From a virus: a stretch of DNA of 64,000 nt. This document shows, piece after piece, positions 2,026 to 57,504 of this stretch. How positions within the stretch are numbered: position 1 is the stretch's first letter; each line of letters starts with the position of its first letter. The notes under the pieces are model-generated. The model was not told the origin of the DNA. It was given only the letters and a program-made list of their open reading frames with translations, and made no database searches. The DNA lies in UHGV virus genome UHGV-0279745; one strand, 5' to 3'. Both the position numbers and the translations under genes were made by a program.

Positions 2026-2409
2026 ATGGCGATTGCAGTAGGCACGGTTTCTACACGCGGCTGGGCAAAAACTCCCCGTGAACGTATTCGTGAGATGATG
2101 AATCATTACACGGAAGCGGGGTATAGCCAATCGCAAATTTATCAAGGCAACGTCCGGTCACTTGCGAAAGCAAAGCAAATGTTTGCTCAAGATCCCGACG
2201 GCTTAGCCAATCGGGTGAAAACAGACTTAACCACGCTTTACGAACATATTTTCCCTGAGGGGGTTGAAGTAGAGACAACCTGGGAATATTTGCCGGATAC
2301 CGATGTACGCTACCGTATCATCATCCAAGCTCGTGTTATGTCGGGTGGGGTGTGGTATGATGTGGAACGTTACGTTGAAACTGAATCATCAGTCATTGAG
2401 GATGAGTAA
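2026..2409 (+). CDS. hypothetical protein
   Basis: 127-aa ORF with RBS-like GGAG upstream. Confidence 0.5.
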   Translation: MAIAVGTVSTRGWAKTPRERIREMMNHYTEAGYSQSQIYQGNVRSLAKAKQMFAQDPDGLANRVKTDLTTLYEHIFPEGVEVETTWEYLPDTDVRYRIIIQARVMSGGVWYDVERYVETESSVIEDE

Positions 2410-2411
2410 GG

Positions 2412-3080: not shown

Positions 3081-4212
3081 TCCGCCACCGAAACCAGTTG
3101 GCGTTAAGCGCATTTTCTCAACGGGCGATGTACACTTATTGCACCGTCGTGTACCGACGTGGCATATTGTTAACGTGCTCAAGGAAACCTTAGAACGGTT
3201 CGATAATACGATTGACGCTATTTATATAGCTGGTGATTTATTTGATGATTCCCGGCATTTGCGGCAAGAAGATTCTCAGGAAGCCATAGGGTTTTTAACT
3301 TGGTTATTGCTCTGGGCCAAACAGACGAATACCGCTATTCGTGTCTTGGAAGGAACACCCTCCCACGATCACAAACAATCGAAAATCGTCGAAGAGTTAA
3401 ATCAGGCGGTGGGTGCAGATTGTTTGTATCTGGATAAGATTGGCGTGTTTTACGACGAGGCGTTAGAAGCGACAGTCGGTTGGGTCCAGGACGAGTATAA
3501 AGCCCTGGGTTCCGAATCCATTGATGCTGCCGCAACAGAACAGGAAATGGCTGAATTATTAGCCACGCGTGGTATACAGCAGATGGATTTCTGCTTTATG
3601 CATGGCTGCTTTCAGTTCCAAGTTCCCGTTGAGTCTACCCGCTTTTTCCATACGGATTTTTGGGAACCGTTAGTCAAGCATTTGATTATCATCCATCACG
3701 ATCATCGTAGGAAACAATTGGGTAAGATTCGTGTACCAGGCAGCCCTGATCGCCTGGCAATGGGTGAAGAAGAGGACAAAGGCTTTGCTATTGTCGATTT
3801 CACTCCTGATTTAGCCAGAGATTATTTCTTGGTTAATGAACGCGCTTGCCCGCAGATTAAGATTGCTGCGGAGGAGGACTATGAATCGCAGTACGCGAAA
3901 TGTCTCTCTGCGCTTGAGTACATTGATACTCATCCGTCCTCAGTGATTGGACGATTGGAAATTGAATATTACCCTGATTCTCCATTGGCGGAAGCCATCA
4001 CTCGTTGGAAATCACAATATTCTTTCCATATTTCAGGTACGCGTATACGTACGCCTGAAGAGGAGCAAATTCTCGCAGCCGGTTTTGCTATCGACGCAGA
4101 GGTCGAGGAAACCATCTCTGAAGAGAATGTGGAAGCGATTTTGTTAGAAGCATTAGTGCCGTTTAAATACGATGCACAAATTGTCACTGACATTATCAGG
4201 AGCATCAAATGA
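3064..4212 (+). CDS. calcineurin-like phosphoesterase, SbcD/Mre11-like nuclease
   Basis: Phosphoesterase motifs in order: GDVHL, GDLFDD, GTPSHD, FMHGCF, IIHHDH. Confidence 0.55.
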   Translation: MKRITNPPPKPVGVKRIFSTGDVHLLHRRVPTWHIVNVLKETLERFDNTIDAIYIAGDLFDDSRHLRQEDSQEAIGFLTWLLLWAKQTNTAIRVLEGTPSHDHKQSKIVEELNQAVGADCLYLDKIGVFYDEALEATVGWVQDEYKALGSESIDAAATEQEMAELLATRGIQQMDFCFMHGCFQFQVPVESTRFFHTDFWEPLVKHLIIIHHDHRRKQLGKIRVPGSPDRLAMGEEEDKGFAIVDFTPDLARDYFLVNERACPQIKIAAEEDYESQYAKCLSALEYIDTHPSSVIGRLEIEYYPDSPLAEAITRWKSQYSFHISGTRIRTPEEEQILAAGFAIDAEVEETISEENVEAILLEALVPFKYDAQIVTDIIRSIK

Positions 4213-5045
4213 CCCCAATCAGTGTTGATCGCACGTTTGGGTTTTATCAAATGTCAATTGCTACATCGTTGGCTTTTGAAGGGCTTCTCCATGAAGGAGA
4301 ATATGCCGATTGGAAGGGTCCTGTCCCTATCCACAAGTATCAGGATATTTACCTGAATCTACGGACGTTGTTCCGTAACGCGTTTTACGCGTTTGAAACG
4401 AATCGTGAACGATTAACACCTGAAGTGTTGCTGGCATCGATTGAAGAAGATATTGCTTCTATTAACGCTACCGCGAAAGCGGTAGCGCCTTCGGTGCTAT
4501 GTGTCCCCTATATCTGTACGTATAAAAGTGCGAACAGAATCTTCCCCGAAGCAGCGTTCCGTACGATTGCAGGAGGGCAGGAAAAGATGACACCTAACCA
4601 GCATCACTTTAATGCGCTAGAACACGATACGTTAAAGTTATACGGTGAAAAATACCCTGAACAATTCAAAAGCTTTGATGTGTTTCCGAAAGGGCAGCAT
4701 GACACATTGATTTTAACCCATTACCCTGCCGATCTACTGGCCTACAAAGATTTCCCGCTGTTGAATCTGCTAGAATCACACACGGGTAAGATTAAAGGTC
4801 GGTTAGAATGGTACACGAAGCTTTACGGTAAACCCGAACAGATCCCGTTTAACAAAGCGTTTCTAACGCTATTTGGCGATGGGTATATGTTCTCCCCACT
4901 TGACAGAAAGGTGCGTAAGGTGGTTTTGAAGACTGCCGAGAAATACCACTGGCGACAAGATACGACTATGGATCGTATTTACAGTTGTTTGAAGTTGGTT
5001 AACGAACCCTTTGTCATTGAGTTCCTTCGTAGATTGTCTCGCTAA
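4209..5045 (+). CDS. hypothetical protein
   Basis: 278-aa ORF; start overlaps the preceding stop (ATGA). Confidence 0.55.
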   Translation: MTPISVDRTFGFYQMSIATSLAFEGLLHEGEYADWKGPVPIHKYQDIYLNLRTLFRNAFYAFETNRERLTPEVLLASIEEDIASINATAKAVAPSVLCVPYICTYKSANRIFPEAAFRTIAGGQEKMTPNQHHFNALEHDTLKLYGEKYPEQFKSFDVFPKGQHDTLILTHYPADLLAYKDFPLLNLLESHTGKIKGRLEWYTKLYGKPEQIPFNKAFLTLFGDGYMFSPLDRKVRKVVLKTAEKYHWRQDTTMDRIYSCLKLVNEPFVIEFLRRLSR

Positions 5046-5103
5046 TTTTACAGATCGTTTTGTTAGTTTGAGCACTCCGAAAATGTAAAAATAGGATAAG
5101 TAA

Positions 5104-5748
5104 ATGGTCAATAAAAACTTCCTTAAAGAGAAATGGCTTTACCCGCAGACTGAGCCGGATCAACAGGGCCGTACGCGTAAACTGGGCATTGAACTGAACG
5201 AGTTCAATGGTGATGTGGAACTGATGAAATTCCACTACTCCTTTGGTAAAGGCGAAGGTCTTTATTTCACCGCAGGCTATACCGTTTGCGTTGATATCTT
5301 TGAAACCCTACGTACGGTGATGCAGAAACCCGAAAAAGTTGTTTTCAAATGGGAAGATGCAAAAGGTAAGAAGGCACCGGTTAGCTTACACGTAGGTCGT
5401 GATGAAAACCTGACACCGTTCTTTGCACTGAGCGGCGAGATCCCAGGGGTTGGTGCGCGTCAGAAGAAATTCTATTTCACTTATCCGAAAGGTTATCGTG
5501 TTTTCCGTAATGGACAACTGGTCTCCGATCTGGAACTGGCAGAGCGTCAGCTACGCGCGTTCCTGAAAAATGCGGATGTATTCCTGGAAGATTTCCGTGA
5601 CAACTACAAACCGCGTGAGTTTAATAATGCGGGTGGTGGTAGTTACGGTCGTGGTGGTTACAATAACGGCGGCAATGGCGGCGGTTATAACAACCAATCC
5701 GGTGCAAAAGCCCCAACACCAACTAACGATTTTGACGATATTATCTAA
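5104..5748 (+). CDS. putative single-stranded DNA-binding protein (SSB-like)
   Basis: Gly/Asn/Tyr-rich flexible tail ending in acidic tip NDFDDII, resembling the bacterial SSB DFDDDIPF tail. Strongly optimised codon usage. N-terminal OB fold not verified. Confidence 0.45.
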   Translation: MVNKNFLKEKWLYPQTEPDQQGRTRKLGIELNEFNGDVELMKFHYSFGKGEGLYFTAGYTVCVDIFETLRTVMQKPEKVVFKWEDAKGKKAPVSLHVGRDENLTPFFALSGEIPGVGARQKKFYFTYPKGYRVFRNGQLVSDLELAERQLRAFLKNADVFLEDFRDNYKPREFNNAGGGSYGRGGYNNGGNGGGYNNQSGAKAPTPTNDFDDII

Positions 5749-5768
5749 ATAATGTAAAACTATAACAT

Positions 5769-5797
5769 AGCCCCAGGATATCCTGGGGCTCTTTATC
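5769..5797 (+). terminator. rho-independent terminator (palindromic stem)
   Basis: CCCCAGGATATCCTGGGG palindrome (5771-5788) followed by a T-rich tract. Confidence 0.5.
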
Positions 5798-5881
5798 GTG
5801 TATGTGTGTAGAATACAGTCGAAGTTATCTGAGATAGATTTTATCTTAGTGGACGACTATGTTATTCCTGGAGATTTTAAA

Positions 5882-7510
5882 ATGCGCATTGAAAAGAATC
5901 GTGACCGTTTAGTGATAAAGTACGGCGAAAAAGAGGTCGCGTTTAATGGTTTCCGAAATGGACGTAAAGACGTGAATGTGCCAGACGTACGCGATAGTTT
6001 CGGACAGATCGTAACGCACGATAAAATCATGTTCATGGAAATCGAGCGTTATTGGTCAACTTTAACGCCTGAAGAGAAAAGCGAACTGTTTTCAGTTTAC
6101 GAAGAATTAGAGTTGTTAGCTAATGAACCCCCAGAAGTTATTCGTGAACACGTCCCCACGCTCGTCGCGAGAATTGCTAAATTTCATCACGCAGATAGAT
6201 TCCGCCAGCTTTATCCACACGGTTCGGTGTGGATTCCTCAAAACGTCCACGAAACGTACGAAGAGATGTCGTCGAATTATCCAAAAGAGATGACGTATAT
6301 CGTACAAGATTATTACGAATTGGTGATTTTGTCTTTGATGACAAAACCGTTTATTCCCGTATTCTTGATTTTGGACGCTTTTCCTGCAACACGCGCTTCT
6401 GTTGAGTCGAAGCGCAAAAGTGTTTATAACCTGACCTACTGCATGGAGTTGTTGTCTGATACCGAGATTGCTACACTGCCAGCCATTACAAAGTTGCGTG
6501 AGTTTTTAGTGTCGGTGATTTCGAAAGTTCAGGACGGAGGGAGTAAAGGACCCAATACTGCAAACCTTACCGTCCTGGCATCTATCTGTGGCTACGGTAC
6601 GGATATGGTAGAGGAATACATCATAGCGTTCGCCGTTATCCGTTTAATTGCAATGAAGTTAATCGGTGCCGAACTACCGCCAGGTACGATGGTTGAAAAC
6701 AACATCGTGGCGGGGATGTATTTCAATATTCGACAAGAAATCGAAACGGGCTTCGCGGGAAAAATTTCCGGCCAAAACGTGATGTTAAAAGCGAATCCTG
6801 AGAAAATCATGTTCAATGGCGAGAAGGGGAAAACTTCGTCGATTGACCTGGTTCAAGCTCGGACTAAAGCACCAATGAAGGAATTCGTTCGTACCCAAGA
6901 ATTCTTTAATGACTATCGTCGTGCGGTACGTGCTTTGAATCTCGATATTGCTCCCGCTGATGTGAAAGTGTTGATAGATTCCATCAACATTAATCATCAA
7001 TATCCGTTCTACGAACTCTACGAATGGTTGGTGGCGGCAGTGATGCACCGATTTGCAGATCGTCGTACATACAAGGAAATCGACTCAGAAGCGTTTAAGA
7101 ACGCGATGGGTATATCCCAAGCCGTTTACATCTATTACGGAATGCCTGAGATTGCACAGTTGTTAAGTTGTGAAATGATCCGGGCACCACTAAATGGCGG
7201 GTATCCCATCGAGCCTATCGATAATGAGATTAAAATAAAAACGGATAGATATTATCCACAAGCATACCGTAAACATCGTAATACTTACGAACAATCAACA
7301 TTGAAGGATTCTCTCAGCTTGTTGGTTCGTGAACATATTGCGCCGTTCAACTTCAATCTCAGGGCAACACCGGAAGCAGCCAGAATGTTACGGTGTGGGA
7401 CAGTGATGTTGGACTATTCACCTCATCCGCGACTTCAGAACATGTTAGCAGAATTTCTGTTAATTCAAAACAGAAAGAAATGCGAAGAAGTAGCATGGTT
7501 TAATCAATAA
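5882..7510 (+). CDS. hypothetical protein
   Basis: Long ORF; start placed at the first ATG with RBS GGAGAT (5869-5874). The track's GTG start at 5798 lies inside the terminator tail. Confidence 0.55.
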   Translation: MRIEKNRDRLVIKYGEKEVAFNGFRNGRKDVNVPDVRDSFGQIVTHDKIMFMEIERYWSTLTPEEKSELFSVYEELELLANEPPEVIREHVPTLVARIAKFHHADRFRQLYPHGSVWIPQNVHETYEEMSSNYPKEMTYIVQDYYELVILSLMTKPFIPVFLILDAFPATRASVESKRKSVYNLTYCMELLSDTEIATLPAITKLREFLVSVISKVQDGGSKGPNTANLTVLASICGYGTDMVEEYIIAFAVIRLIAMKLIGAELPPGTMVENNIVAGMYFNIRQEIETGFAGKISGQNVMLKANPEKIMFNGEKGKTSSIDLVQARTKAPMKEFVRTQEFFNDYRRAVRALNLDIAPADVKVLIDSININHQYPFYELYEWLVAAVMHRFADRRTYKEIDSEAFKNAMGISQAVYIYYGMPEIAQLLSCEMIRAPLNGGYPIEPIDNEIKIKTDRYYPQAYRKHRNTYEQSTLKDSLSLLVREHIAPFNFNLRATPEAARMLRCGTVMLDYSPHPRLQNMLAEFLLIQNRKKCEEVAWFNQ

Positions 7511-7540
7511 TTTTCGGCTTGACCTAAAGGAGCATTTACA

Positions 7541-9247
7541 ATGGCAATGAAACTTTTGAAACTACAAATGTATCCAGTGTACGAAATCCCAGAGCAGATT
7601 CGTCGTCGCATTGGGTTCTTTGAATCGCAGCACGCTTTGGATGAGTTAGTGGATGTGGTTGCAGAACATGGTGATAAAGCAACAGGTTCTCGGGCTTATC
7701 AAGAAGCCTTGGGGCAGATTGTGGGTTTCGACAATACCCCAACTGGCATTGAACGTCCATTCATTAACGTGAGTGATAACGAATCGCAACCAATCCATTT
7801 TGCGTATAATTCTCGCGATACTGGTGTGTATAACTTCGTGGCGATTATTGTTTCGAACTCGTTAAATGACACACGGACTCAAGAAACACGTTATGTTGTT
7901 TCCGGGTATACGTCCCAGGCAGAGCGATCCATGTTTAATCACCTGCCGGATGACATGGTTCTGTATATCAACGAAATATACGGGTTACAATGTACGTATA
8001 TCACCGATGCGTTTGGTGGACGTCGTATCAACCCGGATTCCTTCCGTTTGATAGACAACTATGTGTTGTCCAAGACATTAACCGCAGACAGCTATGTAGA
8101 GCACACCATTGACGTTATTTCTACCGCGAAAGCAGCTGATATGGTGCGTAAAGTGGTGAAAGCAGGTGAGCAGATTGAGCTGGATAACAACACCGTTATC
8201 TCCGCTAATTGCCAGCGTGCGCCACAGTTGATGTCTAGTCAATTAACCAGACCAGAATCTTTCGTGACGGCGATCTCCAATTCCTTTATTAACACCATGG
8301 GGATTGAAACGGAGTTGAGCGCAGTAGACAGCTTCTTCGCAGGAGATCATTCTCTTGGGGTAGAATCTGAACTTAGCCAGATTGGTGTGATGCGTAATTT
8401 CAACAGTTACGAGTTGGTGAAGGCTTTTAGAACCGCCATATCCAACGCCACGTCCGATATGACTAGCGGTTGGAACGTTGCGAACCGTGCAGCATTCAAA
8501 CTGTGCGACCTGCGTAACGCGGTGATTAATCCCGAAGATGTGGATGCTGCAATTGCGCACTCGCTGGCTGTCGCAGCCCGTCGTGGTTTTGGTGAAATTG
8601 AACGCACCGATGATTGGGTAGGACGTAACAACTATTCTACTCAGGGTTCGTTGGTGGCATTTGATTTAGCCATGTTACTGGGGCCTGTGGTCACTCGTAA
8701 CCTTATCGGCGAAGTGACTTTCTTCTACGATAACCGTATGGCGGATATTGCAACACCTCCTCTGCTGCAAGTGTCAAAACACAACGTTGGGGCATTAACT
8801 GAAGACGGATTACCGGATGTGTTAGCACGTCGCTTCTTAAGTGACTTACAAGGCGTGTTCTTGCAAGTGACTAAACACAACCGTATTCGTTGTAAGATGA
8901 CCGTAACGTGTATCGTTGGGGTGGTTTCACGTATTGAAATCGAAATCGATGGTGAGCTACCTGAGTATTATACTCATGCGTCGTTCATGAAAGCACGTCT
9001 GCATTGTGGTACAACGACTGACCTTCAGTACACGAACCAGTTAGCTGCAGAAACAGCGCAGCTGATGAACAAAGTGGAAGAAGGGTACCAAGAATTCAAC
9101 CGTGGTCAGAACCGTTCGAATATCCTGTCGAATATCCCAACTGCCCCTGTGTCTGCACCTACGAGCCTGGGTAGCTTCGGTAGCTTTGGTGGTGGCGATA
9201 TGTCAACCTCTGCGCCAGTGTCTGGCTTTGGTGCATTCGGCGAGTAA
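7541..9247 (+). CDS. hypothetical protein with Gly/Ser/Phe-rich C-terminal tail
   Basis: 568-aa ORF; RBS AAGGAG; C-terminus SLGSFGSFGGGDMSTSAPVSGFGAFGE. Confidence 0.6.
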   Translation: MAMKLLKLQMYPVYEIPEQIRRRIGFFESQHALDELVDVVAEHGDKATGSRAYQEALGQIVGFDNTPTGIERPFINVSDNESQPIHFAYNSRDTGVYNFVAIIVSNSLNDTRTQETRYVVSGYTSQAERSMFNHLPDDMVLYINEIYGLQCTYITDAFGGRRINPDSFRLIDNYVLSKTLTADSYVEHTIDVISTAKAADMVRKVVKAGEQIELDNNTVISANCQRAPQLMSSQLTRPESFVTAISNSFINTMGIETELSAVDSFFAGDHSLGVESELSQIGVMRNFNSYELVKAFRTAISNATSDMTSGWNVANRAAFKLCDLRNAVINPEDVDAAIAHSLAVAARRGFGEIERTDDWVGRNNYSTQGSLVAFDLAMLLGPVVTRNLIGEVTFFYDNRMADIATPPLLQVSKHNVGALTEDGLPDVLARRFLSDLQGVFLQVTKHNRIRCKMTVTCIVGVVSRIEIEIDGELPEYYTHASFMKARLHCGTTTDLQYTNQLAAETAQLMNKVEEGYQEFNRGQNRSNILSNIPTAPVSAPTSLGSFGSFGGGDMSTSAPVSGFGAFGE

Positions 9248-9269
9248 AAGATTAATCAAGGACTCTTAA

Positions 9270-10625
9270 ATGAAAATTATTGAATTCTACAAATCGTTTC
9301 TTAAATCACAAGGATTCGATTTTGAAAACGATTTACTCACTCGTGACGGTGGTGAACCGGCAGAGTTTACGTATAACAAAGTGAAGCGCCGTTTGGCGCT
9401 TCCCACCCCAGCGATGATTAAGCGTGGTATGGAAGACGATGATGGTCGTGAATGTCAGGCATTTCATCCACTGTGTGAATCGGTACTGGCAGGTGAATCA
9501 GGGACAATTCGTTTCCTGAAGAAATCCATTAATGCGAACCTGTTCATTCGTTCCTTTGCATTAATCGACGCGATTCTGGAAACGGGGGCAAGTGGTAAAG
9601 CAGTACGTTCTGCATCCTACAAGAAGTTCTTAACAGAACAGATTTGCGAAGGGATGAAAGATCCGACGTTCGACGAACGTTTGGTGAAATCCTGGGAAGC
9701 GGTGAAAGCGTTCGTCTATGGACAATTGGAAAAAGATAAAAAGCACAAGATCACCCAGCTTTTTATTGCATCTGATTTAGTTATCGACGGCGTGAAGTTT
9801 AACCGCGTAGCTAATTATCGGAATATGTTCGAAGAAGAATCGTTAGATGGTACTGCAATGTACTTCTCTGCGAAGCTTCAACGTAAACAAGACAAAATCA
9901 TTATCCACCGTTTACTGACCACCGTGTTCGGTTGGTATCCGAGCGTAACGGGGTCTAATGATTCGCGTCCGTATTTCGGTTGCTTAGCACGTGGCTGGGC
10001 GCAGTACGTTGTGAATTACAATAATGTCGTTAAGGGATTGCGCGACCACACATCTTTACGTCCGTTGGAAGATGAATGGATTTCTCAGCTGGACAATATG
10101 GATATTTACGATAACGTTATTCAGACTTTACCGTATAACACCGGCCCACGTTCTGACAGCCCTGAACGTGATACCACGGCGCATGATTTCCGTATCGATC
10201 GTGCGCAGGCTCCGCAGCAGATTCCACAAAAACGTGCATCGGATGCGGATAAAGCGGATAAGTCAGATCCGATGGAATTCTTCCGTGCTCGTGAACGTAA
10301 CATGGCCGCGCGAAGTCCTTATGGGAATTTGACGCCAGCGATGCAACGTTACGCTGAGCAACACGGAACAACTAGCCCTGCCAACGGTATGGTAAGTCGA
10401 ATTTCTGTTGTGGATGCGTTTGGTGGTGAGCGCAAGGTGTCACCTTTCGGTGGTCAGAGTATTTTTGGTGTAGGGAATACCGGAGGCTCTTTGGCAAGTA
10501 CCTTTGGTGGAGGGAATAATTCTTTCAGCGGGGATGTCGGTGGGACTAGCGCGTTTAGCACGAGTTCAGCATTTGCAACGAACAGCAGTTTCGGTGGATT
10601 TGCAACTTCGGCATTTACGCGTTAA
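9270..10625 (+). CDS. hypothetical protein with long FG/SG-repeat-like C-terminal tail
   Basis: 451-aa ORF; the last ~80 aa are low-complexity G/S/F/T-rich (FGG, FGV, FSG, FGGF repeats). Confidence 0.6.
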   Translation: MKIIEFYKSFLKSQGFDFENDLLTRDGGEPAEFTYNKVKRRLALPTPAMIKRGMEDDDGRECQAFHPLCESVLAGESGTIRFLKKSINANLFIRSFALIDAILETGASGKAVRSASYKKFLTEQICEGMKDPTFDERLVKSWEAVKAFVYGQLEKDKKHKITQLFIASDLVIDGVKFNRVANYRNMFEEESLDGTAMYFSAKLQRKQDKIIIHRLLTTVFGWYPSVTGSNDSRPYFGCLARGWAQYVVNYNNVVKGLRDHTSLRPLEDEWISQLDNMDIYDNVIQTLPYNTGPRSDSPERDTTAHDFRIDRAQAPQQIPQKRASDADKADKSDPMEFFRARERNMAARSPYGNLTPAMQRYAEQHGTTSPANGMVSRISVVDAFGGERKVSPFGGQSIFGVGNTGGSLASTFGGGNNSFSGDVGGTSAFSTSSAFATNSSFGGFATSAFTR

Positions 10626-11049: not shown

Positions 11050-13287
11050 ATGAAAACGCCAGTAGAGCTAATGAGCAGTGTGGCTGACCGTGAGATTAAT
11101 ATCACCGAAGTATCAGGTGCAAGGGCATCGATGGTAGGCAACCATATGAAGTCTGCGGTCCCTATCGACAATCCTGAACCATCGCCGCATTTTACAGGCG
11201 CAGATATAAACTACCACGATTTTCTGTTCAACGACGTTGTAGAAGATCCCGGTAGCATCTGCCACTATATGACCAAAGACGGTCGTCAGCGCCGCGCGAC
11301 GTTTACACGTTATGGTCGTCGTGGGGATTCTAAAGCGTTAGAACATGCTATCTTCTTCCGCCGTGCAGAAATGAAGGGCGGTAAAACCATGATAGATGTG
11401 CTGGAGATTAACTTCTATACTAACCACGACAACATCTTCTCATCTGAGAAACGTGAGTCGATGAAACTGCGTAGTATTTTACGTGGTGAAACCGATCAGT
11501 TGGAAAAGGATGAAATCCTTACAACGATGTCGTGTATGGTGGAAGGCGAGTACGCCGATAGCGTTGTGCTACCAACCGTTACGATTTCGCATCCTGATAT
11601 CATCGAGGATTCTTACACCATCTCTGAGTACGCCGCCCAAAAACTCCACGGTTATGGTTTGAAAATCGTTGAAAAGACGCTACGTGAAGACGAGTTTTTA
11701 CTGGATACTTACGGTTATATCGATCCGAACGGTAATCGCGTCCCACGGTATTTCCCGGATGTGGGGGAGGCTATTCGTGACGATGGGTTGGTCATTGCAT
11801 CGCGTCGTTTCGATGAACTTTACGGTGCAATTGATGCGTCGCTTGGGGAAACCCAACACGTCTCTCCGTTCTTTGATAGTTGCGAATATGTGGATGCCGA
11901 TCCCGTCCATTATAAAGCACGTCTTGCAGGTGACAAAGAACTGATGGAACGTAGCGGTACACGTATCGTCGATATCCAGGTGTGGCGTGATGAAACGTCT
12001 TGCGCGAATGGTGCTAACAATATTTCTTGTACCGAAGAGAACAAACGAGAACTGGATAAATACGCATTAGCATTGAAAGACTATTACAATGCCATCGTAC
12101 GATTCTATTTCTCGATGTCCCGTGACAAAAATATTATCTGGTCGCCGAAAGCGTGTGTGTTGTTGGAGAAAGCGTTCGCTTCTGAAACGTACGAGGTCTA
12201 TCACGAGTTTCGTGAAGAGATACGCGTGGTGATTGATGAAGCAATTCGTCGTGGTGAATACGGTAAAGAAAATGTCAGTCAGCAGATTCTTTCTAAGTTG
12301 ACCTCGCCAGTACAACGTGGACTCAGCGATCCCATCAACACGTATACCATTCGTATTGCTGTTCGTTATCCGATCCCGGTAACGGTGTCGTCTAAGATTA
12401 CCGACCGCTCGGGTACGAAAGGGATTGTTGGACGTGTATTACCCGTTGAACAGATGCCGATTAACGAATTCGGTGAACGTGTTCACGTTTTACGTTCGAT
12501 GAACGCTGTAATTCGTCGCTCGACATATGCAGCATTATTCCACATGTATTGGTCAGCTGCGTCTGAACAGTTGAAAATGCGTCTCAAACCATTGCTGGAT
12601 GAAGGACGTATCAGCGAGAGCTGGGAAATCCTGATGGATTATCTATCACGCTATAATCCAGAATGGGCCAATACACTACAGGCAACGCATCCTACGGAGG
12701 ATTTACAACGCGAACTTTTCAAAGAGATTTACGATTTTACAATCCGTATTTACTTACCACATGAACTTGACGACACGCCAGTCGATATCAGTGAACGGTT
12801 GGGTGAATTTAAACCGCGTAAATCCAAACTCCTGATTACTAATTTCGATGGTAAACAGGAATGGACAAAAAATGAGTTTTACGTAGGTGGTGTGGAAACA
12901 TTACGTCTGGATAAAACAGGTCGTGAGTTTTCCAGTATTTCGTCAATGTATCTGAATTATCTGGGTACGATAGACGCGTCTAACCAAGGCCGTGGTTCGT
13001 ATCCGATAAACTATAAAACGCTAAAATGGGCTGGTCCTTCGGAAGAACGACTGTTAGCGGGTTATGGTCCAGGTAACTACGAAGAAGTTCACGACAGGGC
13101 AAATAACCCTGCGGTGCATCGTGAGATTTTAGTAGGGCTTTATCGATCTCAAACCCCGTCTAATCCGGGTCCACTGGTAGACCGAAATAAATTCCCGTTA
13201 GGGGATTCACAGATTGACAGGATGATGAAAAACATTCACAGCTGTGAAGGGTTTGAATTGGTGAAAATGAAAAGGGGCGATGAATAA
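11050..13287 (+). CDS. multisubunit RNA polymerase beta subunit, C-terminal module
   Basis: [12 protein letters not shown] resembles [39 protein letters not shown] resembles [37 protein letters not shown] resembles EMEVWALEAYG. All in the same order as bacterial beta. Confidence 0.75.
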   Translation: [745 protein letters not shown]

Positions 13288-15386
13288 TGAAGGGCACTCC
13301 AGTTCACGTGCGTGATCTGTGTAAACTGAACTCGGATCAGGTGTGGCTATTGCGCGGCAGATATGAAGTGACGTTCGATGACGGGATAACCTTAAACATG
13401 TCAGGACGCCACATTAAAATCAGTTGGCCTTATTGGGGGCTAACACGATTTTATCCGCAGATCCCAATCAGTTCGCAAATGGCGTATAAACATGGCGACA
13501 CCGCTACAGATGACGCACATCTGAAGTTTATGTCATTGGCAGCTGTGGCAGCACGTAAAGCGGGTGTGGATTTAGCAGATACCCGCTATTTATTGCAGCA
13601 GCACGTCTATGCGGATGCGTTTAACTTATCGGTGAAAAATCTGTTGTCGTATTGTGTCACGATTGACTACGATACGATGATGGAAATTTACCAACACCGA
13701 AATTTTACGCAGATTCATCAGTGGGCACAAATGTATCCTACTGGGTACGACGAAGAAGGTCGGGATATGATCGAAGAAGCGTATCTTCTTATCGAAGATA
13801 TCTTCAAAGACCCACAACTTCGTTTAAACCCTGTGGTGATGTCGGTCTTGGATAAGACCATCAAAATGAACCAGGTTCTCCAGGCGTATATACGTGGGAA
13901 AACATCAGAGATTGATTCTCGCGTTTATTCTAACCAGGTATGGGAAGGTTTCTTTACGGGTCTACATTCTGTAATTAGCCGTCTGAAAGAAGCGGGAGCG
14001 ACGTCACGTTCTCACCTGTATAATACCGATAAAATCGCCGATGCGGAATATGCGTCACGTAAGCTACAGTTAGCAGCCAACGTGCTAATGTATTTCGAAT
14101 ACGACGATTGTGGTACGCATCATGTTCATCGCCACACGTTTACAGAAAGTAAACTGGAGCGTAAGAAGTACGACGCGATGGTGGGAATGCGATATCGTTT
14201 TGAAGGCGTGGGTGGCCCGTGGCTACGATTCGAGAAAGGGGAGTTTGAGAAAGTCTTAGGCAAACCTATTGAGTTTCGTACCGCGATGTGTTGTAAGGGG
14301 ATGGCACGTCAAAGCATTTGTGCAACATGCATGGGTGATTTGATTTATAACCTTTCGCCGGGAACATCCCCAGGTCACTTGGCATCAACCTCGATATCTG
14401 AAAAGGGTACACAGGGGATTCTCTCAACGAAGCACTTGGACTTCTTACGCTATCTGCTGAATCTGGTGCTGACTCCAAGAATGCGGGATTATCTTGGGGA
14501 GTATAAACACAACTCCGTAAAAGGGTTGAGTTTACGGGAGAAACCACAGTACGGTAATTGGGATGAATACCAACTCGTTATTTCTGATGAAGTCTATTCT
14601 GAAATCAGCCAAATCGCGTATCATGACGATTTGGAAGTGATCGACGAAACGGCATTGCCGGAGATTAACGAACTGACCTTTTTGCGGTTGGATGAAGCTG
14701 GGAATGTGTTGGCTGAAGATCCCATTGACGTCCGTATGGGGGTTTGTGGTAACTTCTCGAAAGCCTTCTTGCATTTCTTCCTGAAACAGCGCGATAACAT
14801 TACCTTCCCGTCGAAGAAACTGGTACGGATTCCCCTGAAAGGATGGAAACCGAGTTGGCCGATACTAATTTATACGAATCGGTCTGAATCTATGGCGGAG
14901 TTTGTAGCAGGGTTAGAATTGAAACTTCGTTCGGTTGCGTCTGATAAATCGGATACTTTCGAACAGTTCTCTGATGACTCAATGCGTTTGAGCAAGAAGT
15001 CGGGTAAGGTAAAACCAACGACACTGGTTCAGATGCGTGGTGCTACGGAGAAACAATGTACGCACGCGTTATTTGATGTGTTTAAATATATCCAACGTAA
15101 GCTCGGTGGTATTCCGATGACTCACATCGCGATTATGCTGGCGATATCACGCGTTGAATCACCGACCAATCCTTTCCCGGCGGTTGGGTTTGATAGTGAA
15201 GATGCTGATGTGATGGATGGCAAACGTTTCGAGGATCACAATACGTTGATTGCGATGCGTTCAGCTGTACCGATGTTGTTATTCGAAGGCCAACAGAAAA
15301 ACCTGGACAACGTGCGTTTCTACACGTCGCGTAAACGTCCGGCGTCGTTATACGACAATACGGTGGCCGCGACTATCATTGAGTAA
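13287..15386 (+). CDS. multisubunit RNA polymerase beta' subunit, C-terminal module
   Basis: Translationally coupled to the beta module (1-nt overlap). KGMARQSICATCMGDL resembles the bridge helix RKGLADTALKTANSGYL; ASTSISEKGTQGILSTKH resembles trigger-loop AAQSIGEPGTQLTMRTFH. Confidence 0.6.
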   Translation: MKGTPVHVRDLCKLNSDQVWLLRGRYEVTFDDGITLNMSGRHIKISWPYWGLTRFYPQIPISSQMAYKHGDTATDDAHLKFMSLAAVAARKAGVDLADTRYLLQQHVYADAFNLSVKNLLSYCVTIDYDTMMEIYQHRNFTQIHQWAQMYPTGYDEEGRDMIEEAYLLIEDIFKDPQLRLNPVVMSVLDKTIKMNQVLQAYIRGKTSEIDSRVYSNQVWEGFFTGLHSVISRLKEAGATSRSHLYNTDKIADAEYASRKLQLAANVLMYFEYDDCGTHHVHRHTFTESKLERKKYDAMVGMRYRFEGVGGPWLRFEKGEFEKVLGKPIEFRTAMCCKGMARQSICATCMGDLIYNLSPGTSPGHLASTSISEKGTQGILSTKHLDFLRYLLNLVLTPRMRDYLGEYKHNSVKGLSLREKPQYGNWDEYQLVISDEVYSEISQIAYHDDLEVIDETALPEINELTFLRLDEAGNVLAEDPIDVRMGVCGNFSKAFLHFFLKQRDNITFPSKKLVRIPLKGWKPSWPILIYTNRSESMAEFVAGLELKLRSVASDKSDTFEQFSDDSMRLSKKSGKVKPTTLVQMRGATEKQCTHALFDVFKYIQRKLGGIPMTHIAIMLAISRVESPTNPFPAVGFDSEDADVMDGKRFEDHNTLIAMRSAVPMLLFEGQQKNLDNVRFYTSRKRPASLYDNTVAATIIE

Positions 15387-15388: not shown

Positions 15389-15416
15389 GAGAGGGGCCTG
15401 CGCCCCTCTTTTTTTG
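15389..15416 (+). terminator. rho-independent terminator
   Basis: Stem AGAGGGGC/GCCCCTCT followed by a T-run. Confidence 0.6.
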
Positions 15417-38247: not shown

Positions 38248-38289
38248 TTTCAGATATATATTACCTAGGTGAGATTACACAGTAATCTC
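38248..38289 (+). promoter_or_regulatory. candidate phage promoter (TATATTAC core) plus downstream inverted repeat
   Basis: 27-nt element TTTCAGATATATATTACCTAGGTGAGA is identical to 46505-46531; TATATTAC at 38257-38264; perfect inverted repeat GAGATTAC-aca-GTAATCTC at 38271-38289; about 68 nt upstream of ATG 38325. Confidence 0.5.
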
Positions 38290-52844: not shown

Positions 52845-52890
52845 AGAGTCTAAGCCCTTCGGGGCTTAGACCTTTTATTTTTTTTTTCTT
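52845..52890 (+). terminator. rho-independent terminator
   Basis: 10-bp stem GTCTAAGCCC / GGGCTTAGAC with TTCG loop, followed by an 18-nt T-rich run. Confidence 0.75.
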
Positions 52891-53015
52891 TCTATTATTT
52901 TTTGGATAGATATTATTAAAGGGAGACGGCCAGTTGGTTTTAAAGGAGTATGTATGGAAAAAATACAGTTTAAACTAAAGATATGTGTCATCATTAAAAT
53001 TTAGCTTGGGTTCCC

Positions 53016-54026
53016 ATGAAACGTCTTGATATTGATGTGGTGCCCAGTATCTCTGAACGCTCGTTATGTCAAACGTCTGGATTGAGGAAACTTGTTACGT
53101 TTGAAAATAACACTGGCGTGCCTATCCACGTCACTGAAACCAGTGGCGGTAGCTTTATTTTAAATGCTTCGAAAAACCCCGCTGATGAGCATGGGGTTAT
53201 CGTTTACGTGACGTATCAATCGTACGGAAGATGCGCGAATCTCAATGGGTTTGCTGAACTGATGCCGGGAAAACAGTTTTCTCGCTTTTGCGACCAATTG
53301 AAAGAAAAAGGGGAGGTAACGTTAGAGTATGCAGTAAACGACGTTGGTGCGTTGCTGCGAGGAGATTTGGTTGTACTAAAGCAGTTAGGCTTTGCTTTCT
53401 CAACAACACCGATACGCTTAGATAGTAAACCCCCAACTATGCGCCCTGGAGGTGAGCGCACTGAATTTACATTGGGTGTTGTTGTTGTGCAGCGCTACGA
53501 CGAGCCTGACAATTATCGGTGGCTACGTTTCTACGGTACGAAAATGAAAATCGAACCAATAACGTCACGCTATTATGAACCGGGCGTTTACATGATAATA
53601 GGAGGTGGAACGAGGGTGGAAGGGAGTCGAATGATTCATTTTGAATTTGACGACATTACTTCACCGTTTAGATTATTTAAGGATGAGGCAGCGGCGGACG
53701 CGTTTCGATGGCAAGAAGCAGTTCCCGGTCTCTTTGAGATTAAGCAACGTTTAGAGGAGCAGTACAAAGAAAAATTAGAAAGCTTGGATTCGGCAAAAGA
53801 CAAGTTAGAATTGGAACACAAGAAACAACTACAGAGCATGGCTTTAGAAAAGGAGCGATTGACTTTAGCATTCAAGCAACAGGAATTGGAAGCGAAGTCA
53901 CGGGCTGAGGCGCGTAAAGAATTCTACGAGACGCGTTCTTACATTCGTAAGGACGGCTCAGACCTATTTAAATCTGTCCCTGCGTATTTGGCGGCGGGTG
54001 TCGCATTTATAGGGATGCTAACGTAA
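53016..54026 (+). CDS. hypothetical protein with C-terminal coiled-coil-like region and hydrophobic tail
   Basis: 336-aa ORF; charged heptad-like region followed by AYLAAGVAFIGML at the C-terminus. Confidence 0.55.
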   Translation: MKRLDIDVVPSISERSLCQTSGLRKLVTFENNTGVPIHVTETSGGSFILNASKNPADEHGVIVYVTYQSYGRCANLNGFAELMPGKQFSRFCDQLKEKGEVTLEYAVNDVGALLRGDLVVLKQLGFAFSTTPIRLDSKPPTMRPGGERTEFTLGVVVVQRYDEPDNYRWLRFYGTKMKIEPITSRYYEPGVYMIIGGGTRVEGSRMIHFEFDDITSPFRLFKDEAAADAFRWQEAVPGLFEIKQRLEEQYKEKLESLDSAKDKLELEHKKQLQSMALEKERLTLAFKQQELEAKSRAEARKEFYETRSYIRKDGSDLFKSVPAYLAAGVAFIGMLT

Positions 54027-54036: not shown

Positions 54037-55812
54037 GTGTTTAAAGATGCAATCAAAAAGCTTAAAGAGAACGGTAAAATAGTACCCTTTAACCGTGCGA
54101 TTGCGGAAGGAGTCGGTTATACACAAGCCAAAGATGGTATTCACGATCGTGTACATCGTATCTTGAAACGTGAGCTAGATTACCATCCTGTAGAGAACCC
54201 TCGTGTTCCTGAAGGCTTGGCCGTGTTGGGTGTTCGTTTAATGTCGCCGTTCGAAACCTTTATCTATAAGCTGTCTCGTTCAGAGAGCAGCAGGATGGAT
54301 AAGCGTCGTGGTGTGATGTCTATCGCGAATACCGATGCGTATATGGTCATGTCGTCGTTCCGTATTCCTGGAGACTCAAGACCAATCTCAAGACCGATTA
54401 ACTTGCCTTTCATTCGTCGTGGTGGGTTGATGAACTATTACGGAACAACGTACCATGTTGCACCTGTTATTCATCAGCCGGGTATCTGTCGTGAGCACGG
54501 CGGGGTGTTTGTTAATTTTGACTTTAAACGTAAAGCGTCATTAAAATTCTGTAAGCACCCGGTACGGATTTTAGTGAATGGGAAGAAAGAAGAATTGTTC
54601 TTGCCCGGAACAAACAATCTGTTTAAAGCCAAAAACGCCACACATCCTGACACGGACGAAAAGCCGTTAATGTACTGGCTATTCGGGCGTTATGGATTTA
54701 AGGAAGCCATCAAACGTTATACTGGCGTGGATGTGGAGATATATCCTGCATTCAAAGTACCTGAAATCGATCTCGATAAAAAAGTAGTAATCAGTTCAGG
54801 TGAGCCTAAACATAATCGGACGATTATGTACGTAGTGACGGTTCCTGCAGAGGCTTTACCAAATCTCGATAAAGCGGGATGGGATCAAAACGAGCACTTA
54901 TTACTCGTGGCGATTTCTGCATTCTTTAAAGCAGCGCACTATTATTGCGGAAAGCAAGCGATTAAAAACGGCAACGTTGTTCCTTTACCGCCGTTGTTTA
55001 CCGCGATTAACGAACTTGCAATGGAGGACGATGTTGTAAACCTGAATTCCTCCGCAATTTGGCGGGAGATTTTGGGGAGAAGTATTGTTGGACTTAAACC
55101 GTCCGATATTGAACTGGCACACAGCATGACGAAGCACTATACGGAGTGCGAACGCTACGTTAACTCAACATTCCGTGGTGAGTTAATGATGTCAGATCCC
55201 GATATCCCGGACGATATGGATATGTTTGATTTCTTCTGGTACGCGACGAAGTTGATGGTGAGAACACGCCTTACGAAACAAGGTGATATTCCGTCAATGT
55301 ATGGAAAACGTCTGACCGTAACAGATTATCTGTTATTGGGTGAGCGTGGCTTTACGCCTACCATCGCAGCGATTCGTTTCCACTTGGGACAAACGGAAAA
55401 TCGAACACCGGAGTCTTGTGCGAACATGATACGTAGTGCGTTGAATAAAGACATTGTAACTAGCCTGGTATTACGCAACATTACCGGCAATGGCGGTGTA
55501 AGTTATTTCAACGCTTCTACCGAGTCTATGGTGCTGGGGGTTTCAACCCATGCTATCAGCCAGACAGAAACAGAATCCAAACGTAACAGCAAAGGCGGTA
55601 AGACGGTTAACCTTAATGACCGGACAAAACATGCCTCTGCATCTCATCTGGAATGTGGCAACGTGTATTACATTCCGAAATCATCACCGTTTAAATCGGG
55701 TATTCTCAATCCGTATATGAAGACGAACACCCAACTGGTGATGGTACGTAATCCAAAACTCAACGAGTTGATCCAAGCAACCGAAGAAGACATTGCGAAG
55801 ATTGGCCGTTAA
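54037..55812 (+). CDS. hypothetical protein
   Basis: 591-aa ORF starting at GTG 54037, 6 nt after RBS AAGGAG. Confidence 0.55.
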   Translation: MFKDAIKKLKENGKIVPFNRAIAEGVGYTQAKDGIHDRVHRILKRELDYHPVENPRVPEGLAVLGVRLMSPFETFIYKLSRSESSRMDKRRGVMSIANTDAYMVMSSFRIPGDSRPISRPINLPFIRRGGLMNYYGTTYHVAPVIHQPGICREHGGVFVNFDFKRKASLKFCKHPVRILVNGKKEELFLPGTNNLFKAKNATHPDTDEKPLMYWLFGRYGFKEAIKRYTGVDVEIYPAFKVPEIDLDKKVVISSGEPKHNRTIMYVVTVPAEALPNLDKAGWDQNEHLLLVAISAFFKAAHYYCGKQAIKNGNVVPLPPLFTAINELAMEDDVVNLNSSAIWREILGRSIVGLKPSDIELAHSMTKHYTECERYVNSTFRGELMMSDPDIPDDMDMFDFFWYATKLMVRTRLTKQGDIPSMYGKRLTVTDYLLLGERGFTPTIAAIRFHLGQTENRTPESCANMIRSALNKDIVTSLVLRNITGNGGVSYFNASTESMVLGVSTHAISQTETESKRNSKGGKTVNLNDRTKHASASHLECGNVYYIPKSSPFKSGILNPYMKTNTQLVMVRNPKLNELIQATEEDIAKIGR

Positions 55813-55851: not shown

Positions 55852-57504
55852 ATGGCAACTGTCAATAAAGACGTAATTCGTAACCACATCTATAGCACGA
55901 TCTCCAGTGGTCGTGATGAACTTTTATCGTATCTTTGTAATCAAGCACGTGCTGCTGGATTGAATGACGACAAATACATGGATAATGCCGTTACCGTCGC
56001 CACGTGGTTTGTATACAACCGTCGTCCAGATAACGAAACTGCATCGGCGATTCTGGCAACTTTTAAATCGACGCTGTATAGTGACTTACTGGGGCGTGGT
56101 ATGCAGCCACTGGACCCGCGTATTCACAGCCAGCTGGAACAGGAATTCCGTACGGCAAATCAGTATGCGGTACAAGCTAAACAGCTTATGGCGCAATCGA
56201 GCACTTTTGGTGGCCCAGCAATGGGTGGGTCTCCGAGCTTAGCGATGCCAGCGTCTGGCTTCCCAGGCAACGGCTATGGTAGTCCACAACCAGCACCAGC
56301 GGTACAAGGGGGTTCTATCCCAATGTCAACTTACGATCCGCGCACAGCGGCACAGAAGCAAACAGCGCAACCGCAAGGTAACTTCGGCCAGCCTGCACAA
56401 CAACCTGCACAGCAACCCGTGCAACAGGCACAGCCTAAACCGACTGTTTCGCAGTCTATGGTGGAAGCTAACAAGCCGCGTGAGCTCGACGAGAAAACTA
56501 TCGAAGAACTTGTCGAACGTTACAATAAACCTATCATCGATCATTTCCGGGTGGAAATTGTGGAAGACTATTTAGATCACGAACTTAGAGAACAGATTAA
56601 GAAAAATATTCTTACGCCGAAAGAACTCAATGAACGCATCAAAAATTCACCGTATTCTAGCCATCACAACTGGTCAGAAAAGGTTGACGAAATCATCGAT
56701 AATGAAGACGTCGATTATTGCGTTTATGATGAAGCGGATGTGATGGTGAAAACCGAAAGCGAGTATAAATTGTTCCCGATGGTGAGTACGGATTCGAGCA
56801 AAACTTACCTTCAAGAATTTTATACTGCCACCCGCCAGGCAATCGATGGTATCGAAGATATTCGCGATATTGACGATCCGGAAGAAATGCTGAAGCGTAC
56901 GATCGATGAGGTGTTCCGCATCCGTAAAATGTCTGAGCGCCTACTGCAATATTTCAATACTCAGGCAGAGGAGCCGGATACACTGAAACAAAGCTGTGTG
57001 GAGTTTTGTCAGCAGTTTAACGCAACACTCACTGTTTTGGTTCATAACGCGATTGCTGTTGCGACAAACTACGGTAAAGGAATTCCAGGTACGAAATTTG
57101 TACAATTCGATTGTAACTTAAGCGATCTCGAATACTTCCGTGACACGCTGTTCCCGCGCACTATCGGTGAAAATGGTGTAACCACGGCTGCGGATTTCTT
57201 CCGCGAACTGTGCTTGCTGGTTGCACGTTCTGTTCGTAAGTTGCACTTCCGTCTGAAATCTAACGATCGTGCTATTGAAATCTGTCGCGTAACTTACACT
57301 ATTCAACTGCCTGCGGATTACCCGTCTGCAAAAGGTCGCAATATCGTAGAGATTTCCTCCTTCGGTAATGCGTTTGAACCTATTGTCGGTATCTATGAAG
57401 CAATTAACCAACGCGCACCTGAAGCTATTGTGAAGCTGGCTACCCCGTCGGCATCGTATACACTGCTTAGCAATGGTGAAATTACCGCACCGGTGCGTTA
57501 CTAA
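55852..57504 (+). CDS. hypothetical protein with Gln/Pro-rich low-complexity segment
   Basis: 550-aa ORF; RBS AGGAG; QPAQQPAQQPVQQAQP repeat region. Confidence 0.6.
   Translation: MATVNKDVIRNHIYSTISSGRDELLSYLCNQARAAGLNDDKYMDNAVTVATWFVYNRRPDNETASAILATFKSTLYSDLLGRGMQPLDPRIHSQLEQEFRTANQYAVQAKQLMAQSSTFGGPAMGGSPSLAMPASGFPGNGYGSPQPAPAVQGGSIPMSTYDPRTAAQKQTAQPQGNFGQPAQQPAQQPVQQAQPKPTVSQSMVEANKPRELDEKTIEELVERYNKPIIDHFRVEIVEDYLDHELREQIKKNILTPKELNERIKNSPYSSHHNWSEKVDEIIDNEDVDYCVYDEADVMVKTESEYKLFPMVSTDSSKTYLQEFYTATRQAIDGIEDIRDIDDPEEMLKRTIDEVFRIRKMSERLLQYFNTQAEEPDTLKQSCVEFCQQFNATLTVLVHNAIAVATNYGKGIPGTKFVQFDCNLSDLEYFRDTLFPRTIGENGVTTAADFFRELCLLVARSVRKLHFRLKSNDRAIEICRVTYTIQLPADYPSAKGRNIVEISSFGNAFEPIVGIYEAINQRAPEAIVKLATPSASYTLLSNGEITAPVRY

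Follow-up and report, generated by a model that had tools for sequence, protein, structure and literature searches.

A recurring 13-mer ahead of nvRNAP genes in an SPN3US/Asesino-like jumbo phage: a probable sub-class of early-type promoters

How the second RNA polymerase of nucleus-forming jumbo phages is switched on is only partly settled. The transcriptome study of phage 201phi2-1 did not succeed in locating an early promoter next to every nvRNAP gene, and it assigned some of these genes to middle or late promoters (PMC11512511). The viral DNA considered here, a stretch of 64,000 nt that we refer to as the window, raises this question at position 5831, where a preliminary description had noted a short AT-rich motif, GATAGATWTTAT, that recurs upstream of other genes, among them the RNAP beta module. 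Here we ask what this motif is, which genes it stands before, and which polymerase would be expected to read it.

Recurrence and conservation of the motif

Read directly from the sequence, the three copies already described stand at their reported positions (GAGATAGATTTTAT, 5831-5844; GAGATAGATATTATC, 11006-11020; GGATAGATATTATT, 52904-52917), and there is a fourth exact copy, GATAGATATTAT, absent from the preliminary description, at 7244-7255 within the coding sequence 5882-7510. All four exact matches to GATAGATWTTAT lie on the + strand, while 0.017-0.024 matches are expected on both strands together (Markov orders 1-4, analytic), giving a Poisson P of about 1e-8 to 1e-9. Allowing up to one mismatch to the GATAGATATTAT motif, the window holds five copies against 0.58 expected from dinucleotide shuffles. 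Exact copies number eight in SPN3US (0.04-0.07 expected) and seven in Asesino (0.02-0.04 expected). Because these counts far exceed the shuffle and Markov expectations, the reservation that support was weak, the motif being short and AT-rich, proves too cautious. The same two properties are what would favor chance recurrence of a functionless word, but four copies where about 0.02 are expected, all on one strand, conservation of orthologous sites across several genera, and prediction of the window sites by a position weight matrix (PWM) built from other genomes exclude that origin. The one-mismatch copy on the minus strand at 62137-62148 was considered as a fifth site and rejected; it scores below 8 bits with the PWM, is inside a + strand coding sequence, and has no supporting flanks.

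Judged by its gene content, the window is from a nucleus-forming jumbo phage of the Chimalliviridae type that resembles SPN3US and Asesino and has two multisubunit RNA polymerases. This assignment is made because its nvRNAP beta protein (gene 11050-13287) is 77% identical to Asesino gp51 (RNA polymerase beta-like) and 70.5% identical to SPN3US gp34 (tblastn), because its gene order parallels SPN3US from gp23 onward and Asesino from gp40 onward, and because Asesino has been shown experimentally to be nucleus-forming, with gp039 as chimallin and gp040 as nvRNAP beta'1 (PMC11724907). The window's beta protein has at most 77% identity to that of any phage in the collection searched, and megablast with 7 kb of the window gave no match among GenBank phages. 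SPN3US has been used as a genetic model (PMC5105663), and Asesino has been imaged (PMC11724907).

SPN3US, Asesino, Kwan and pEa_SNUABM_10 keep the motif core identical or nearly so at orthologous loci whose flanks have diverged; in the orthologous upstream regions of Asesino and SPN3US the shared core is (G/A)AGATAGATATTATC. Kwan and pEa_SNUABM_10 have sites before the gp68-like gene, inside it, and before the nvRNAP beta gene. EarlPhillipIV has a more diverged form, ATATATGTTATC, and Vibrio phage pVp-JHP1101 has AGATATATTTCAT at both intergenic loci (gp68-like and nvRNAP beta). An identical 48-mer is found in two IMG/VR contigs of 221-225 kb. Among the IMG/VR matches listed for the bare 14-mer AGATAGATATTATC, most are single chance matches. 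The longer pattern AGATAGATATTATCNNNNTG has at least 80 matches there; among those listed, 13 contigs of 220-250 kb account for 30, ten of these contigs carrying two to four each, and the other 50 are on smaller contigs, one each.

The preliminary description had proposed enrichment upstream of genes throughout the genome as a check, and we find it in the closest complete relatives, SPN3US and Asesino, whose genomes were assembled from their annotated records. Scanning for AGATAKATATTAY with up to one mismatch gives 6 hits in the window, 19 in SPN3US and 21 in Asesino, every one on the + strand. When ORFs are called mechanically, the 5-7% of sequence left free of ORFs holds 17 of 19 sites in SPN3US and 16 of 20 in Asesino (binomial P of 1e-20 and 1e-15, respectively). 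By annotation, 17 of the 19 SPN3US sites are in intergenic DNA and have the same orientation as the next gene. The PWM, trained on SPN3US and Asesino with the window excluded, recovers exactly six sites in the window (5832, 7243, 11007, 52904, 38252 and 46509; 26-55 bits), and nothing else in the window exceeds 8 bits. These sites and the adjoining hairpins are listed here by coordinates and strand.

5769..5797, + strand: terminator-like hairpin (hairpin proper 5769-5790; 9-bp stem with 7 GC pairs) and T-rich tail, ending the unit that precedes site 1
5818..5852, + strand: promoter-like site 1; core 13-mer AGATAGATTTTAT at 5832-5844 plus upstream flank; heads gene 5882; predicted start region at the TG at 5850-5851; 33.8 bits (PWM trained on other phages); orthologous sites at SPN3US 23810 and Asesino 24556, also in Kwan and pEa_SNUABM_10
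7229..7263, + strand: promoter-like site 2, internal to coding sequence 5882-7510; core GGATAGATATTAT at 7243-7255 preceded by AAAATAAAAA; 298 nt ahead of gene 7541; 26.4 bits
10993..11027, + strand: promoter-like site 3; A-tract 10997-11003 and core AGATAGATATTAT at 11007-11019; heads the nvRNAP beta and beta' genes; predicted start near the TGA at 11025-11027; 39.6 bits, the best PWM score among the variant sites of the window; conserved at SPN3US 28969, Asesino 29795 and in Kwan, with related forms in pEa_SNUABM_10, EarlPhillipIV, the Vibrio phage, phiKZ and 201phi2-1
38252..38289, + strand: site of the canonical ('TAC') class; core AGATATATATTAC at 38252-38264; leader stem-loop GAGATTAC-ACA-GTAATCTC at 38271-38289 (-8.2 kcal/mol); 52.9 bits
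46509..46547, + strand: second canonical-class site; core AGATATATATTAC at 46509-46521, then a leader stem-loop; 55.4 bits
52847..52889, + strand: terminator-like hairpin AGTCTAAGCCC-TTCG-GGGCTTAGAC with a long T-run, 3' of the major capsid gene and before site 4
52890..52924, + strand: promoter-like site 4, immediately past the major capsid gene terminator; core GGATAGATATTAT at 52904-52916; heads a tiny ORF, gene 53016 and the nvRNAP beta N-half gene 54037; 31.8 bits; orthologous to SPN3US 72486 and Asesino 73981

The copies had been described as lying between a terminator and the next gene. This holds at 5831, where the hairpin is at 5769-5790, and at 52904, where it is at about 52847-52889; the copy at 11006 instead adjoins a minus-strand gene (10663-10986), and the hairpin at 10626-10662 is beyond that gene. 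The orthologous genes of SPN3US and Asesino are annotated with starts that match those given for the downstream genes (5882, 11050 and 53016). From the start of the core to the start codon there are 43-50 nt at 5832 and 11007. We also considered an element acting at the RNA level and set it aside, as site 11007 abuts the divergent gene and leaves no space for another promoter, and a conserved A-tract precedes the core.

Two covarying sub-classes and their relation to known promoters

The window contains another recurring motif, TTTCAGATATATATTACCTAGGTGAGA, at the intergenic positions 38252 and 46509, with the 13-mer core AGATATATATTAC; this is probably the motif that the preliminary description had counted as the first. 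The idea that ours is a second, independent motif does not survive comparison of the two. They align without gaps and in the same register as AGATA[T/G]ATATTA[C/T], an A-rich tract lies 8-11 nt upstream in both, and they differ only at two covarying positions, where T6 and C13 of the canonical form become G and T in the variant. When exact 13-mers are counted over the window, SPN3US and Asesino together, the combinations G..T and T..C occur 12 times each, G..C once, and T..T never. Across three genera, orthologous loci keep the same sub-class.

The two sub-classes also differ in their leaders. A stem-loop beginning about 6 nt past the core follows each of the 17 canonical (TAC) sites; the mean MFE is about -8.3 kcal/mol, and the stem sequence varies from site to site while pairing is kept. 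The 28 variant (TAT) sites have no consistent hairpin (mean about -4.5 kcal/mol). In both classes together, the first TG starts at offset 6 past the core in 25 of 45 sites, which is the same offset at which the canonical leader hairpin begins. The canonical sites of the lineage thus have the form AGATATATATTAC, CTAGGTGAGAG, leader stem-loop and AATCGACTA, and share overall architecture, A-tract and orientation with the variant. They number two in the window, seven in SPN3US (one of them a G6..C13 hybrid) and eight in Asesino, and in the latter two phages they head runs of mostly short, mostly unannotated genes, whereas the variant heads nvRNAP, chimallin and other larger conserved genes. The covarying bases, the missing leader hairpin and the different gene set suggest that the variant is a functionally distinct sub-class.

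The element as a whole is most likely a regulatory element of a known kind, a jumbo-phage early promoter, rather than a new mechanism; this class of promoters is described as having been mapped by experiment. In every RNAP-encoding jumbo phage, an AT-rich motif of about 10 nt is centered near -10 of the early starts and has been attributed to the virion polymerase (PMC7598289). The motif studied here likewise has a conserved, over-represented AT-rich core of about 10 nt common to many sites, and it lies upstream of, and co-oriented with, genes whose earliness is taken from phiKZ (PMC4666361). The phiKZ early core, AGATnTATATTAC, is matched by the window's canonical AGATATATATTAC, and in the phiKZ genome, read directly, AGAT(A/C/T)TATATTAC follows an A-tract upstream of gp31, gp36, gp54 (chimallin) and gp68; the gp54 promoter, P54E, has served as the early-promoter template (PMC4666361). 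The variant AGATAGATATTAT matches the phiKZ gp31 core AGATATATATTAC at 11 of 13 positions in the same register. In early phiKZ promoters as in the variant, the core is preceded by an A-rich tract and followed about 6-7 nt later by a TG, and the sites are co-oriented with and close to early genes that include chimallin and nvRNAP subunits. They differ consistently at two covarying positions (G for T at position 6 and T for C at position 13), and the variant 15-mer is often a perfect dyad. The assignment of the phiKZ early motif to the virion polymerase was itself inferred from timing and rifampicin resistance, and in 2017 the authors of the AR9 work remarked that a virion RNAP had yet to be purified.

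The closest phiKZ counterparts of the variant are sites upstream of gp53 and gp70.1/gp71 and at 35871, which read AGATCTATATCAT and end in TATATCAT. These sites likewise end in T rather than C, and one is at the orthologous position before the nvRNAP beta gene; they differ in ending CAT rather than TAT and in having no G at position 6. We found no paper that treats the phiKZ TATATCAT sites as a separate class. In 201phi2-1, AGATTTATATTAC is upstream of gp124 (gp68-like) and of gp128/129, and because the form at the beta locus is the canonical TAC form, the two-class split is not universal. Early-type cores occur at the same loci in phiKZ (gp68, TAC; gp70.1/71, TATATCAT), 201phi2-1 (gp124, gp128/129) and the Vibrio phage (AGATATATTTCAT), and the presence of such a core at these loci is ancient.

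Resemblance to the other phiKZ promoter types is limited to their being phage-specific promoters of a two-polymerase jumbo phage. The phiKZ middle promoter is AAanTTACc near -24; AAnnTTAC is found within -40..+13 at 2 of 28 variant sites. The late promoter is TATG at the start site, which nvRNAP reads in vitro (PMC4666361); the 14 nt that follow the core contain TATG at 1 of 28. AR9 and N4 share the strategy of an injected polymerase that reads early promoters, including those of the second-polymerase genes (PMC5312081; PMC4666361), but the N4 polymerase and the promoter sequences of both phages are unrelated, and AR9 has uracil-containing DNA and a different consensus.

Genes behind the sites and readings of the element

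The genes that follow the variant sites in the window fall into three units, and searches of these genes against Pfam gave no match.

5882..7510, + strand: homologue of phiKZ gp68, the fifth nvRNAP subunit; SPN3US gp30, Asesino gp47; first gene after site 1
7541..10625, + strand: genes 7541-9247 and 9270-10625, syntenic with phiKZ gp69 and gp70, after sites 1 and 2; the unit 5882-10625 ends at the hairpin 10626-10662
11050..13287, + strand: nvRNAP beta C-half; SPN3US gp34, phiKZ gp71-73; PHROG 'RNA polymerase beta subunit'
13287..15386, + strand: nvRNAP beta' C-half; SPN3US gp35, phiKZ gp74
15389..15410: terminator after the unit 11050..15386
53016..54026, + strand: SPN3US gp76 orthologue
54037..55812, + strand: nvRNAP beta N-half; SPN3US gp77, Asesino gp94
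55852..57504, + strand: orthologue of SPN3US gp78, essential

The product of 5882-7510 matches phiKZ gp68 over 403 aa (BLASTP E = 2e-11, 19% identity) and phrog_3209, and synteny at this locus is kept as SbcD..gp68-gp69-gp70..gp71-gp74-helicase (phiKZ numbering). The identities of SPN3US gp35 as the C-terminal part of nvRNAP beta' and of gp77 as the N-terminal fragment of beta, as well as the role of gp78, are from PMC5105663.

The same arrangement is seen in both complete relatives. One variant site (SPN3US 15614, Asesino 16337) heads the chimallin gene chmA (gp22/gp039) followed by nvRNAP beta'1 (gp23/gp040), with identities from PMC11724907; others head the gp68-like gene (23810, 24556), the beta and beta' genes (28969, 29795), and gp76-77 of SPN3US (72486/72684) and gp93-94 of Asesino (73981/74900). 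In both phages, all five nvRNAP genes are in variant-headed units. Of the five virion-RNAP genes of SPN3US (gp42, 218, 240, 241 and 244), none is preceded by a site of this family within the roughly 5 kb examined. The nvRNAP subunits of phiKZ are made early and its virion RNAP subunits in the middle phase (PMC4666361). Because nvRNAP does not yet exist when its genes are first transcribed, the variant must be readable by the injected virion polymerase or, with lower probability, by the host enzyme.

We consider it likely that the motif is an early-type promoter core for the virion RNA polymerase, and that it forms a two-substitution sub-class (G6, T13) of AGATATATATTAC. The membership in a family-wide early core follows from the ungapped alignment of the two motifs and from the matching phiKZ and 201phi2-1 cores. 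The proposal of a promoter class is borne out to the extent that the sites are promoter-like, co-oriented just upstream of genes, and distinguishable as a class with its own gene set. Its suggested identity as a middle promoter, dependent on nvRNAP, is unlikely, because the genes behind the motif include those of nvRNAP, which must be made before that enzyme exists; chimallin is behind the motif as well, and the virion-RNAP genes, which are middle genes in phiKZ, lack it. Broadened to any distinct temporal class, middle or delayed-early, read by nvRNAP or by a virion polymerase modified by early proteins, the proposal draws on the sharp separation of the sub-classes by two covarying bases, kept at orthologous loci in three genera, on the absence of the leader stem-loop present at every canonical site, and on the different gene set. 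A modified virion polymerase has been raised for phiKZ middle promoters (PMC4666361), and the 201phi2-1 study gave gp129/130 a middle promoter (PMC11512511). However, the core just before gp128/129 of 201phi2-1 is of the canonical early type, the variant agrees with the early core at 11 of 13 positions, and the phiKZ middle and late elements are nearly absent from the variant sites, so that a temporal class of this broader kind also seems improbable to us. A separate timing sub-class, for example delayed-early, is possible.

Less probable again is a composite of an early promoter and an operator for a dimeric phage DNA-binding protein, by which the polymerase and chimallin genes would be switched separately from other early genes. 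Here T13 would complete the dyad AGATA-N5-TATCT, the 15-mers contrasted being AGATAGATATTATCT and AGATATATATTACCT. Perfect 5-bp inverted arms, one helical turn apart, are present in 15 of 28 sites, three of which read GGATA..TATCC, with positions 1 and 15 changing together so that pairing is kept; the canonical class reaches only 3-4 of 5 arm pairs, and a 'putative transcriptional regulator' gene is behind a canonical early site in SPN3US (gp101) and Asesino (gp118). But the canonical class conserves the left arm AGATA just as well, phiKZ, where there is no dyad, likewise conserves AGAT, and good sites break the dyad (GGATA..TATTA at 52904; AGATA..TATCC at 11007). The flanks are asymmetric, all sites are oriented with their gene, a single orthologous intragenic site, constrained by coding, accounts for two of the three GGATA..TATCC cases, and 5-bp dyads arise easily in AT-rich sequence. 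The reading to which we give least weight among those that assign the motif a function is a host sigma-70 extended -10 promoter (aGaTATTAT), used by the bacterial polymerase before phage enzymes take part. TATTAT matches TATAAT at 5 of 6 positions, and both class-specific substitutions shift toward consensus (G at -14 and T at -7). No -35 element accompanies it, however, the best TTGACA match at 16-18 nt averaging 2.39 of 6 against 2.46 at random positions; -15/-14 read AG rather than the TG of an extended -10, and a sigma-70 scan of 1-20000 did not report sites 5832 and 11007. Neither the invariant AGATA nor the A-tract is characteristic of sigma-70 promoters, the site persists in more distant relatives with a poor -10 (TTTCAT in the Vibrio phage, TATCAT in phiKZ), and phiKZ development is rifampicin-resistant (PMC4666361). 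Some host-polymerase activity at the sites is possible.

As an early-type promoter, the full element would consist of an A-rich tract about 8-11 nt upstream, the 13-mer AGATAGATATTAT, which usually has a C after it, and a start region about 6-8 nt past the 13-mer, often at TG(A). The injected virion polymerase would recognize the A-tract and 13-mer and initiate about 6-8 nt beyond. In this lineage the variant stands before the genes needed first for phage transcription and for the compartment: the chimallin/beta' N operon, the gp68-like gene, beta C/beta' C, and beta N. In the window, the predicted transcription units are 5882-10625, 11050-15386 and 53016-57504. Site 1 (P1, 5832) would serve the gp68-like gene and two further genes, site 2 (P2, 7243) would provide an internal start for the genes of 7541-10625, site 3 (P3, 11007) would serve nvRNAP beta C and beta' C as far as the terminator at 15389-15410, and site 4 (P4, 52904) would serve the tiny ORF, gene 53016, nvRNAP beta N and the gp78 orthologue.

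A more specific extension of this scheme, which we offer tentatively and regard as doubtful, is a 'bootstrap regulon' in which the AGATAGATATTATCT sites, with their perfect dyad and no hairpin, run chimallin and the five nvRNAP subunits and are timed or regulated apart from the AGATATATATTAC sites, while the latter drive accessory early genes. Such separation might come about through a modified virion polymerase, through a dimeric regulator encoded by the phage, or through transcription in different compartments (injection vesicle versus nucleus).

In the searchable literature we found no description of the early consensus of the SPN3US/Asesino lineage, of two covarying sub-classes within it that differ in leader and gene set, or of one sub-class heading all nvRNAP genes and chimallin; nor did we find start mapping, a time-course, or a demonstration of rifampicin independence for SPN3US-like phages. 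Full-text searches with ATAGATATTAT, ATATATATTAC and TATATTAC returned unrelated papers only, and promoter logos sit in figures, which are outside text search. The placement of every nvRNAP gene and chimallin behind one early-type variant in this lineage bears on the 201phi2-1 puzzle. With a single 13-mer that predicts nvRNAP and chimallin units, a simple promoter map can be drawn for unannotated relatives. The variant is also a candidate for a minimal promoter through which the virion polymerase could drive expression, and the contrast between sub-classes yields the informative point mutations G6T and T13C.

The intragenic copy

The copy at 7244 is read in frame as Asp-Arg-Tyr-Tyr. Its codons, GAT AGA TAT TAT, are identical in five phages (the window, Asesino, SPN3US, Kwan and pEa_SNUABM_10), while synonymous positions nearby vary freely among the same five. 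With the codon usage of the window, in which AGA accounts for 6.9% of Arg codons, the probability of this codon combination given the amino acids is 0.010 per genome. In EarlPhillipIV the peptide is Glu-Ile-Tyr-Tyr, and the DNA (GAA ATA TAT TAT) is still promoter-like. The retention of a rare codon choice amid varying neighbors, and a promoter-like DNA sequence in EarlPhillipIV despite the amino-acid change, indicate that the copy is under selection at the nucleotide level.

From the site at 7243 to the next start codon there are nearly 300 nt, far beyond the 43-50 nt found at 5832 and 11007, and this counts against reading it as a promoter. The pattern of conservation at 7244 nevertheless fits a putative internal start for genes 7541-10625.

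Leader hairpins and early-type cores

In the canonical early-type class, which carries the phiKZ-type early promoter core, CTAGGTGAGAG comes after every AGATATATATTAC site, together with a short stem-loop in the leader, and AATCGACTA often comes next. Sites with this stem-loop include:

Window 38252-38289 and 46509-46547: canonical sites with leader stem-loop
SPN3US 56294, 65413, 94239, 113986, 165687 and 223277: canonical sites with leader stem-loop

Pairing is retained in these hairpins, and the sequence of the stem varies from site to site. The element has the appearance of a conserved RNA hairpin at the 5' end of transcripts from these sites, possibly with a role in stability or export. 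Sites of the variant (T-ending) class lack the leader hairpin seen at the canonical sites.

Canonical early-type cores, AGATTTATATTAC, are also found in 201phi2-1 (NC_010821) at 1240 and 6302, where they adjoin the 5' side of gp124, which resembles phiKZ gp68 (the fifth subunit of the non-virion RNA polymerase, nvRNAP), and of gp128/gp129 (nvRNAP beta). A published ONT-cappable-seq study of this phage assigns transcription of gp129/130 to a middle promoter, and reports finding no early promoter near some subunits (PMC11512511). In phiKZ (NC_004629), a sub-set of early-type cores (35871, 44917 and 63058) ends in TATATCAT rather than TATATTAC, and includes the core before gp70.1/gp71 (nvRNAP beta). 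This sub-set may correspond to the variant class, ending in T, of the window, SPN3US and Asesino.

Possible small genes behind variant-class sites

Downstream of promoter site 4, a variant-class promoter-like site after the major capsid gene terminator, lies a short reading frame with a strong ribosome-binding site (AAAGGAG):

Window 52954-53004 (+): 16-codon ORF, MEKIQFKLKICVIIKI, in the interval from promoter site 4 to the gene at 53016

The matching slot holds a different, 27-codon ORF in SPN3US and the 269-aa gene gp92 in Asesino. Both relatives have a second promoter copy directly before the gp76 orthologue, whereas its counterpart in the window is decayed.

At SPN3US 174954 and Asesino 177201, an annotated gene overlaps at its end with another site of the variant class, AAATAGATATTATTA. 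Behind the SPN3US site come a ribosome-binding site of good quality and an ATG that is not annotated, directly upstream of the endolysin gene, so there may be a small unannotated gene at this position.

Intron match, terminator-like hairpins and shared leader

Three further features were recorded in the window:

749-1066 (+): group I intron match (Rfam RF00028), between ORFs 225-896 and 1070-1354
23173-23218 and 28532-28581: terminator-like hairpins, ATTACCCTACTCCCGRAGGAGTAGGGTAAC with T-runs, between convergent genes
7521-7540 and 11033-11049: shared leader element, ACCTAAAGGAGCATT(T/A)A, directly 5' of the start codon

The intron match (58.6 bits, E = 2.7e-12, model covered full-length) splits the orthologue of SPN3US gp23 and Asesino gp040 (nvRNAP beta' N-terminal fragment), both of which are annotated as uninterrupted genes. 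The two hairpins, near-identical and ~5.3 kb from each other, are one repeated terminator sequence, not independent hairpins. The leader element, common to both positions, is a conserved translation-initiation region extending past the Shine-Dalgarno core; AACCA(A/T)AAGGAGCATTTA precedes the nvRNAP beta gene in SPN3US and Asesino.
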